This document shows positions 50,669 to 52,897 of a stretch of DNA of 64,000 nt, in pieces. Location of the stretch: assembly GCF_044647545.1 (NCBI RefSeq), contig NZ_CP172818.1. The stretch is one strand, 5' to 3'. Positions within the stretch are counted from its first letter, which is position 1. Each line of letters opens with the position of its first letter. Origin of the DNA: Escherichia coli (GTDB taxonomy: Bacteria > Pseudomonadota > Gammaproteobacteria > Enterobacterales > Enterobacteriaceae). Under the pieces are notes generated by a model, which was not told where the DNA came from, made no database searches, and saw only the letters and a list, made by a program, of their open reading frames with translations. The position numbers were made by a program, and so were the translations under genes.

Positions 50669-50702
50669 GCCGGATGCGACGCTTGCCGCGTCTTATCCGG
50701 CC
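50669..50702. repeat. REP element
   Basis: gccggatgcgacgcttgccgcgtcttatccggcc. Confidence 0.8.
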
Positions 50703-50743: not shown

Positions 50744-51445
50744 CTACAGTTTCAGAATTTCTTTCACAAACGGAATGGTCAGCTTACGTTGCGCGGTAAT
50801 CGACGCACGATCCAGCTGATCCAGCGTCATAAATAACGTGCGCATTTCTCTGTCGAGCCGCTTCAGCAAGAAACGCCCCACATCTTCCGGCAGTTCAAAA
50901 CCACGCAAACGCGCGCGTAACTGTAGCGCCTGCAACTTATCTTCATCAGAAAGTGGCTGCAATTTGTAGATCTGCCCCCAGTCGAGTCGCGACGCGAGAT
51001 CCGGTAATCCCAGATTCAACTGCCGCGGTGGACGATCGCCGGTGATCAACAACCGTGTTTTGCCCGATTCCAGAATTCGATTGTAGAGATCGAAAATCGC
51101 CATCTCCCACAACTCATCGCCTGCAATACACTCAATGTTGTCGATACAGACCAGCGACAAATGCTCCATACCGTCGAGCACTTCCGGAACAAACCAGGTG
51201 CGTTTATCCAGCGGGACATAGCCCACCGCATCGCCACGCTGCGACAATTCCGCGCAAGCCGCGTGCAGCAGATGGCTGCGCCCCGCGCCTTCGCGTGCCC
51301 AGAGATAGATGTAACCGCTATGTTCCTGACGCAGCACGTTTTGCAGCGCGGCCAGTAAAGAGGAGTTATCCCCCGGCCAGAAACTTGCAAAGGTTTCGTC
51401 GTCAGGAAGATAAAGTGGCAAAGAGAGCTGTGCCGGTGTGTTCAG
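50744..51445 (-). CDS. hda: DnaA-inactivating factor Hda (AAA+)
   Basis: Track ORF is 248 aa from ATG 51490; I recall the functional Hda as 233 aa initiating at the in-frame CTG (51445). Either start gives the same AAA+ protein. Confidence 0.8.
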
Positions 51446-51510
51446 AGATACCTCAACCAGGATTTCACAAAATCGCGAGAAGTTTACCACAGAATCCCAT
51501 GATGTTTGAA

Positions 51511-51531
51511 CCGGGCAGCAACACTGCCCGG
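51511..51531 (-). terminator. stem-loop immediately downstream of uraA stop (candidate terminator, weak U-tract)
   Basis: ccgggcag caacac tgcccgg. Confidence 0.35.
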
Positions 51532-51539
51532 TCGGTACA

Positions 51540-52829
51540 TTATTTGTCTGTTATATCCGCGTCTTCTGCGTCCAGCACCACTTCTTCAGGGCGCAGCATA
51601 CTAATCAGTTTGAAGATCAAACTTAAGCCGATACCGACGATGGTCGCCAGCGCCATACCTTTCAGCTCCGCCGCGCCAATGTTTACCTTCGCGCCACTGA
51701 CGCCGATGATCAAAATAACGGAAGTCAGGATCAGGTTCTGTGCTTTGTTGTAATCCACTTTCGATTCGATCAACACACGAATACCGGAAGCACCGATGAC
51801 ACCGTAAAGCAGCAGCGAAACGCCGCCCATCACCGGCAATGGAATCATCTGGATAGCAGCAGCCAGTTTACCGACGCAGGAAAGCAGGATAGCGAAAATC
51901 GCCGCCCCGCCGATAACCCAGGTACTGTAAACACGGGTGATCGCCATCACGCCAATGTTTTCTCCGTAAGTGGTGTTTGGCGTGGAGCCAAAGAAGCCGG
52001 AGATCACGGTCGACAAGCCGTTAGCAAACATCGAACGGTGCAGACCTGGATCGCGCAGCAGATCTTTTTTGACGATATTAGCCGTTACCACCAGGTGCCC
52101 TACGTGTTCGGCAATAACCACTAACGCCGCTGGCAGAATAGTCAGAATGGCAAACCACTCGAAGCGCGGCGTATAGAGGGTCGGCAGCGCAAACCAGTGA
52201 GCATTAATAATCGGCGTGGTATCGACAATTCCCATTGCGAAAGAGAGCGCGTAGCCCACCAGCACGCCAATTAAAATCGGGATAATTGCCAGGAAACCAC
52301 GAAACAGCACGGAACCTAAAACCGTGACTGCCAAGGTGGTAATGGAGATGATGATGGTTTTGGAGTCTGGCGTTTGCCCTTCAGCCGGGAGTAAACCTGC
52401 CATACCGGCAGCTACGCCCGCCAGCTCCAGACCGATGACGGCAACGATTGCGCCCATTGCCGCAGGTGGAAACAGCACGTCCAGCCAGCCGGTCCCCGCT
52501 TTCTTCACGATAAAAGAAACCAGGCAGAACAGCACGCCGCACATAATAAAGCCGCCCAGCGCGACTTCATACCCTAACGGCAACAGTAACAATACCGGTG
52601 AAATAAAGGCAAAGCTGGAACCAAGATAAGCCGGGATTTTCCCTTTACAGATGAAGAGATACAGCAGCGTTCCTATACCGTTAAATAACAGTACAGTCGC
52701 CGGGTTAATATGAAATAAGACGGGCACCAGGACGGTTGCACCAAACATGGCGAACAAATGTTGCAAACTAAGCGGGATTGTCTGTAAAAGTGGCGGTCTT
52801 TCACTCACCCCGATAGCACGGCGCGTCAT
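51540..52829 (-). CDS. uraA: uracil:H+ symporter UraA
   Basis: ATG at 52829 gives 429 aa [16 protein letters not shown]...; NCS2 family. Confidence 0.92.
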
Positions 52830-52869
52830 AGAATTATCCTCTGTATTATGTGTTATAGGCGCTTTACTC

Positions 52870-52897
52870 AAAAAAAAGCCGACTCTTAAAGTCGGCT
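52870..52897 (-). terminator. rho-independent terminator between upp and uraA
   Basis: Minus strand: agccgact ttaag agtcggct followed by T8. Confidence 0.8.

Follow-up and report, generated by a model that had tools for sequence, protein, structure and literature searches.

The hda locus and its gene product

The window, a stretch of 64,000 nucleotides, comes from Escherichia coli and carries hda with its neighbours upp, uraA, arsC (yfgD) and bepA. Of 5426 complete E. coli genomes, 5425 contain a match to the 1.1-kb hda region, and its identity with strain FDAARGOS_497 was 100%. The longest open reading frame (ORF) at the locus lies on the minus strand at 50744..51490 and encodes 248 amino acids (aa), an extent that the preliminary description of this DNA had given correctly. 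Its first codon had been called ATG there; it is GTG, both in the sequence (51490..51488) and in the ORF list, and one has to go to 51500 for the nearest ATG, which stands in another frame.

The gene is E. coli hda; its product inactivates DnaA together with the beta clamp, in RIDA. The window protein scored 476.6 bits against NF005982, the NCBIfam Hda equivalog model (cut-off, 268), and 281.4 bits against the Hda equivalog model TIGR03420 (cut-off, 194.8). In the AAA+ core, residues 55, 56, 57, 103, 153 and 156 (233-aa numbering) are G, R, S, N, R and W; the crystal structure of Kim 2017 places Gly55, Arg56 and Ser57 in the P-loop region and Arg153 as the Box VII arginine finger, and also names Trp23, Asn103 and Trp156. 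The window Hda sequence is identical to that of PDB 5X06. According to the literature on the identical K-12 protein, Hda and the DNA-loaded beta clamp stimulate hydrolysis of DnaA-bound ATP (RIDA). When DnaA is switched off after initiation, Hda is the main protein with which the beta clamp works.

Exactly 15 codons downstream of the GTG at 51490, the same frame contains a CTG at 51445..51443 (minus strand), as had been noted before. It is followed by AAC ACA CCG GCA CAG CTC TCT TTG CCA CTT. The coding sequence as really used occupies 50744..51445 on the minus strand and consists of 233 codons plus a TAG stop, with CTG as the start. Its product has a computed mass of 26.63 kDa, compared with 28.37 kDa for a product started at GTG. 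The RefSeq coding sequence of hda has the same coordinates; it is 702 nt long and its first base is position 51445 of the window. In MG1655, hda (b2496; 2618075..2618776; NP_416991.2) also starts at CTG, and the start region is identical to that of the window.

The CTG start of hda in annotation and literature

The CTG start of hda is already known (2008) and stands in the reference annotation; the window holds the same case and no variant of it. According to EcoGene 3.0, which cites Su'etsugu et al. 2008 (J Biol Chem 283:36118), CTG initiation of hda was shown experimentally. The start is curated in EcoGene/U00096.3, and only one other E. coli K-12 gene, yfjD (EcoGene 3.0), has a confirmed CTG start. 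The older annotation U00096.2 gave hda as 2616097..2616843, that is, with the GTG start. In the tetracycline-arrested ribosome profiling (TetRP) study of Nakahigashi 2016, the start of hda is recorded as having moved by 45 nt between the 2006 and 2014 annotations, and the gene is scored '3. 2014', with the signal at 2616798 (CTG) and none at 2616843, the GTG site of the 2006 annotation. A ribosome-profiling initiation signal was a check that the preliminary description had named beforehand, and these published data place it at the CTG.

The structural work agrees with this position. Kim 2017 described Hda with the clamp in a 233-residue numbering, with a mass of 26.6 kDa and the clamp motif 6-QLSLPL-11, and in our computed check these residue numbers and this mass fit the CTG-started product only. 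RefSeq, MG1655, EcoGene 3.0, TetRP, the structure numbering and the comparative analysis given below agree on a functional Hda of 233 aa started at CTG, as the preliminary description had it. The label of established knowledge attached to that claim was correct.

Initiation at CUG uses the initiator tRNA and inserts fMet. Since the CUG is read by the initiator tRNA, Hda begins with Met and not with Leu, and the N-terminus given earlier (LNTPAQ...) has to be corrected in its first residue. In agreement, residues 21-253 of the 253-residue chain in PDB 5X06 read M-NTPAQ..., behind a 20-residue leader.

Taken together with the comparisons that follow, we consider it very probable that Hda translation starts at the CUG at 51445..51443, giving 233 residues and 26.6 kDa, that the gene is served by its own extended -10 promoter, and that the GTG at 51490 is no start. 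What the present analysis adds to the known start is the order-wide conservation of the CTG, of the Shine-Dalgarno sequence and of the promoter, the finding that the GTG once annotated as the start belongs to the extended -10 element, upstream of the mapped transcription start site (TSS), and the observation that the weak codon was never upgraded in 83 species.

Conservation of the CTG codon across species

We compared hda and its flanks among 80 Enterobacteriaceae species representatives (92-100% protein identity), which together with Yersinia, Erwinia and Proteus made up 83 species. The CTG initiation codon (51443..51445) was kept in 80/80 Enterobacteriaceae species and also in Yersinia, Erwinia and Proteus; ATG, GTG or TTG stood in its place in 0/83. 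E. coli hda contains 43 Leu codons, 31 of which encode Leu in all species, and the only one of them that is invariant at the nucleotide level is codon 1. Over the whole gene, 3 of the 163 amino-acid-invariant degenerate codons were nucleotide-invariant. As the sole nucleotide-invariant Leu codon is this CTG, it is constrained as a specific triplet, beyond its amino-acid meaning. The feature is not a product of chance: it is a specific codon of a known gene, and its invariance was measured.

The position of the start can also be read from the pattern of variation around it. Column entropy, averaged for each codon position, was 0.186/0.041/0.692 over the first 30 codons that follow the CTG, a clear coding signature, and flat (0.80/0.73/0.75) in the 36 nt at -45 to -10. 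Codon periodicity begins at the CTG. Upstream of it, we found indels whose lengths are not multiples of three, with one extra base relative to E. coli in 64/80 species. An in-frame stop occurs within 15 codons upstream of the CTG in 60/80 species, and in 46/80 species the stretch from the CTG back to the first upstream stop holds no in-frame ATG, GTG or TTG. The region reads GAG GTG CTT CTG AAY in Yersinia, Erwinia and Proteus, with the CTG and GAGGT in the same register; there, gene callers placed the start at the GTG overlapping the Shine-Dalgarno sequence and so arrived at 235-aa models.

The beta-clamp-binding motif QLSLPL (Kim 2017) is encoded by codons 6-11 at 51413..51430 (minus strand). 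In 123 diverse full-length Hda representatives in which the motif can be recognised, its median starting point is residue 5, and in 92% of them it starts no later than residue 12. The E. coli motif starts at residue 6 when counted from the CTG and at residue 21 when counted from the GTG. The Hda profiles span residues 14-248 and 21-247 of the 248-aa ORF. As they begin only at residues 14 and 21, residues 1-13 are without a homologous family match.

Within E. coli, the 80 nt around the start are identical in 5358/5426 records. With the start region nearly uniform and the extension open, population data cannot tell the two starts apart. One locus recorded as 'E. coli' (L003) has a frame-breaking 1-nt insertion and found no match of at least 99% identity among complete E. 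coli genomes; it probably belongs to a cryptic Escherichia lineage, and for this reason we left it out as intraspecific evidence.

Shine-Dalgarno sequence, leader and promoter of hda

A Shine-Dalgarno sequence, GAGGT, lies at 51450..51454 (minus strand), with its GAGG core (51451..51454) 5 nt before the CTG. GAGGT was found at -9 to -5 in 79/80 species and is invariant across four Enterobacterales families. We found no significant RNA structure around the start by folding (z = +0.6), and an Rfam search of the uraA-hda spacer gave no match.

The published TSS of hda falls at 51473..51474 (minus strand). It was mapped by 454 sequencing with 3 reads and is listed in Table S1 of Mendoza-Vargas 2009 at +17 from the old GTG start, 7-8 nt after the -10 hexamer. 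Counted from this TSS to the CTG, the 5' untranslated leader of hda's own transcript measures ~28-29 nt (51446..51474) and has no codon periodicity. The TSS was not reproduced in the list of Kim 2012, where only a 2-read TSS inside uraA, 620 nt upstream, is found, and the Cappable-seq supplements hold nothing for the hda locus.

Upstream of the TSS, the extended -10 element TGgTAAACT occupies 51481..51489 (minus strand). A TGnTA(A/G/C)ACT sequence is present 42-48 nt upstream of the CTG in 80/80 species, and also in Yersinia, Erwinia and Proteus. The same element had been flagged as extended by Mendoza-Vargas 2009 ('-10 ext (TG): yes'), whose prediction for hda consists of the -10 box GGTAAACT and the -35 box CGGTTCAAA, separated by an 18-nt spacer. 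The -35-like element (51505..51513, minus strand; core TTCAAA) overlaps the 3' arm and tail of a hairpin that follows uraA. This GC-rich 11-bp hairpin without a U-tract lies at 51509..51533 (minus strand), just after the uraA stop (51540..51542), and has a folding energy of -22.2 kcal/mol (z = -5.06). The block CCCGGTTC, which comprises the 3' arm of the hairpin and its tail, is conserved and overlaps with the -35 region.

A simple consensus scan for promoters and terminators over 51300..51750 called nothing, the -35-like element included, and the uraA hairpin was not called as an intrinsic terminator. As the scan does not model extended -10 promoters, we did not take its empty result as counter-evidence. 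The 9-mer TGNTAAACT was found once in the window against 1.35 expected; it is not rarer than chance, so that the argument for the promoter rests on conservation and the TSS and not on the match itself. These two lines of evidence support the view that hda has its own extended -10 sigma-70 promoter and a leader of ~28 nt with a well-placed Shine-Dalgarno sequence. In its build the promoter resembles the extended -10 (TGn) sigma-70 class: the TG, at -15/-14, lies one base upstream of a hexamer that has A2 and T6 and matches at 4 of 6 positions, the -35 is weak, and the published TSS would lie 7-8 nt downstream. It differs from the class in that TSS support for hda is thin (3 reads).

Alternative start sites

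The GTG that opens the 248-aa ORF (51488..51490, minus strand) has several points in its favour as the true start of a 248-aa main product. The longest ORF has no canonical start codon before it, the original annotation (U00096.2) used it as the start, the frame that it opens is free of stops in nearly all E. coli, and gene callers still yield a 248-aa Hda, for example in a cluster of 3510 member sequences (P0002). The evidence at the site itself runs the other way. The triplet lies within the -10 region, its TG being the TG of the extended -10 element. As the published TSS is 17 nt downstream of the GTG, hda's own mRNA would be without it. TetRP recorded no signal at the GTG site, and the ribosome-binding site before it amounts to a weak GGGA, 4 nt upstream. 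The 15 codons between the two starts (51446..51490, minus strand) behave as promoter and leader rather than as coding sequence, given the flat entropy, the frame-breaking indels and the stops described above; the xTG triplet that corresponds to the GTG shares the frame of the CTG in just 11/80 species. The lack of a family profile over residues 1-13 points the same way, as does a clamp motif that would start at residue 21 when the family median is 5. We therefore regard the 248-aa protein as a very improbable main product. Longest-ORF logic gives the wrong Hda here, a protein with its clamp motif buried at residue 21. Another short frame in this region, a uORF of 11 codons from the out-of-frame ATG at 51500, was considered and rejected; its ATG is not conserved and lies upstream of the TSS.

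A weaker form of the same idea is dual initiation, in which the CUG would give the main 233-aa product and the GTG a minor 248-aa isoform on upp-uraA read-through transcripts. Read-through is plausible, the hairpin after uraA being without a U-tract and without a terminator call; there may accordingly be transcripts from uraA that contain the GTG, and small amounts of the 248-aa protein could be made from them. E. albertii, like E. coli, has an open extension, and TetRP found dual sites for other genes. Yet the TetRP class of hda is that of the 2014 site, which is separate from the 'multiple' class, a good Shine-Dalgarno sequence before the GTG is absent, and related genera have not kept the extension as coding sequence, so that any 248-aa isoform would be without a conserved function. 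We hold such a second product to be improbable, though less so than a GTG start for the main protein.

On the other side of the CTG, the first canonical start codon downstream is the TTG of Leu9 (51419..51421, minus strand), from which a protein of 225 aa would result. Such proteins do stand in databases: K. pneumoniae KPN_02819 is annotated as 678 nt, i.e., 225 aa, and several other database proteins have their N-terminus at the position equivalent to the TTG. However, this codon lies inside the clamp motif, and a start there would drop QLS from QLSLPL, a clamp contact in the crystal structure (Kim 2017). No more than 52.5% of species have TTG at Leu9, the others using synonymous Leu codons, and strong amino-acid conservation with codon periodicity is already present in codons 2-8. 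We give this start practically no credence; the best explanation for the 225-aa calls is the use of gene finders in which CTG is disallowed. With 46/80 species lacking a canonical start upstream, and with the TTG of Leu9 placed in the clamp motif and not conserved, no canonical start accounts for the conserved N-terminus, and initiation at the CUG remains the reading that we adopt.

A possible role of the weak start in Hda dosage

From these features the following course of events can be proposed. A sigma-70 extended -10 promoter (51489..51481) directly behind the uraA hairpin would drive hda, and transcription from about 51473/51474 would produce a leader of ~28 nt with GAGGT 5 nt before the CUG. 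The initiator tRNA reads the CUG and places Met first, with QLSLPL at residues 6-11. The combination of a weak CUG with a good Shine-Dalgarno sequence may have been kept by selection, which would hold Hda at a very low copy number.

That the weak CUG limits Hda dosage is plausible. In a reporter, CUG initiation reaches ~1-2% of AUG; Hda is scarce, at ~50 monomers per cell versus 250-500 clamp dimers (crystal-structure paper); and the CTG is kept in 83 species. All three observations fit a limiting role. One base change would be enough to upgrade the codon, and the fact that this never happened in 83 species argues that low translation is selected. The called starts of seven distant Hda proteins (45-63% identity) were GTG, GTG, TTG, ATG, TTG, TTG and ATG, that is, 5/7 non-ATG; weak starts may accordingly be frequent in the Hda family, though the sample is small and its starts are gene-caller choices.

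The CUG could also be a real start without being a dosage device, a tolerated historical accident, with the Hda level set by promoter strength and protein turnover. A full-text literature search found no experiment on Hda dosage, the hda promoter, with few TSS reads, 4 of 6 matches in the -10 hexamer and a poor -35, gives the impression of being weak, and the strong Shine-Dalgarno sequence partly offsets the weak CUG. An accident of this kind is harder to reconcile with the third-position entropy of 0.69, which means that synonymous sites are near saturation, and yet the CTG is unchanged in 83 species, even though any change of its first base would make a stronger start. The non-ATG starts called in five of the seven distant homologues speak against it as well, and so does the harm reported for excess of this very scarce protein, the title of a cited paper stating that Hda overexpression inhibits multiplication. 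We consider the accident rather unlikely, while giving it more weight than any of the alternative start sites, and keep to a CUG that plausibly limits dosage.

A more far-reaching proposal is that the CUG, the strong Shine-Dalgarno sequence and the extended -10 element form a cassette selected throughout the Enterobacterales, and that Hda synthesis would follow the IF3 level or translational status. The reasoning is that IF3 discriminates against CUG, so that Hda synthesis, and with it the capacity for DnaA-ATP inactivation, would track both. We regard this as a speculative and doubtful extension of the dosage argument. If it were true, IF3-dependent Hda would be an undescribed link between translation capacity and replication-initiation control.

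Comparison with known non-canonical starts

Non-canonical start codons that limit or autoregulate translation in E. coli include the AUU of infC (IF3) and the AUU of pcnB. hda resembles both in having a near-cognate start on a low-abundance regulator, a type of codon against which IF3 is expected to discriminate. It differs from infC in its codon, CUG as opposed to AUU, and in that a feedback loop through IF3 has been demonstrated for infC, whereas we know of no regulatory loop for hda.

The closest known case is E. coli K-12 hda itself (b2496), with the same gene, start region, 702-nt coding sequence, CTG and 233-aa product; there is no difference of substance, the window coming from another E. 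coli strain. The second K-12 gene with a confirmed CTG start, yfjD, is likewise a chromosomal gene in which an annotated canonical start was replaced by CTG, on grounds of conservation and the ribosome-binding site plus mutagenesis (EcoGene 3.0). It encodes an unrelated protein, and its wrong start was a downstream TTG at codon 9, whereas in hda it was an upstream GTG.

The start of hda matters mainly as an annotation check. Gene finders that forbid CTG still give inconsistent models, and among relatives the hda models vary between 225, 235, 241 and 248 aa.

Divergent N-terminal annotations of hda among relatives

The N-terminus of hda, a minus-strand gene (50744..51445), differs between the annotations of its relatives, as seen in the hda loci L082-L084, in the database Hda proteins P0001-P0120 and in K. 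pneumoniae KPN_02819. Five models were encountered. Besides the 233 aa model, which starts at the CTG (51445 in this strain), there is a shorter one of 225 aa beginning at the TTG codon of Leu9, and a model of 235 aa starting at a GTG that overlaps the Shine-Dalgarno sequence, found in Yersinia, Erwinia, Hafnia and Proteus. A 241 aa model uses an ATG or GTG 8 codons upstream, and the Salmonella and Citrobacter loci do have such a codon in frame. The 248 aa model is what gene callers give for E. coli, here opening at GTG 51490. The divergence appears to be an artefact of gene-finding programs in which CTG is disallowed.

We also compared the called starts of seven distant Hda representatives (L085-L091, 45-63% identity), which are GTG, GTG, TTG, ATG, TTG, TTG and ATG, respectively. 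Non-ATG starts were thus called in 5/7, a share that is higher than usual for bacterial genes, in a small sample whose starts are gene-caller calls.

The upstream gene uraA (51540..52871, minus strand) is a second gene whose annotation and longest ORF disagree. The ORF list gives a longest ORF of 443 aa from TTG at 52871, and the RefSeq gene is 1290 nt (429 aa) with its start at 52829.

Variation of the hda region in Escherichia

In locus L003, a GTDB species representative labelled Escherichia coli strain SCPM-O-B-8794, the hda leader carries a 1-nt insertion that disrupts the frame of the 248-aa model. The 81-nt start region of L003 had no match at an identity of at least 99% among the complete E. 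coli genomes, and the best among the matches listed for these genomes was 96.3%. L003 probably represents a cryptic Escherichia lineage, not E. coli proper.

The segment 50600..51700 (1101 nt) aligns with many E. coli strains (matches H3-H11) as two pieces spanning 1133 nt. Therefore, many E. coli strains have approximately 32 extra bases within this region.

Structured elements flanking hda and an antisense site

A strong minus-strand hairpin (51509..51533; −22.2 kcal/mol, z = −5.06) lies directly 3′ of the uraA stop codon. Its 3′ arm is kept across genera and overlaps the hda promoter at the −35 region. The hairpin has no U-tract, and an intrinsic terminator was not called there. This structure may terminate transcription, stabilise the 3′ end of uraA, or permit transcription to read into hda.

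On the other side of the gene, the hda-arsC spacer holds a REP-type palindrome (GCCGGATGCGACGC / GCGTCTTATCCGGC, 50669..50701), which scored below threshold against Rfam naRNA4 (33.9 bits vs a gathering score of 59.5). Within hda itself, Adams et al. (2021) list, in a supplementary table, a plus-strand site at about position 50941 (MG1655 2618272), antisense to the gene. This antisense site may reflect convergent transcription from bepA-arsC entering hda.
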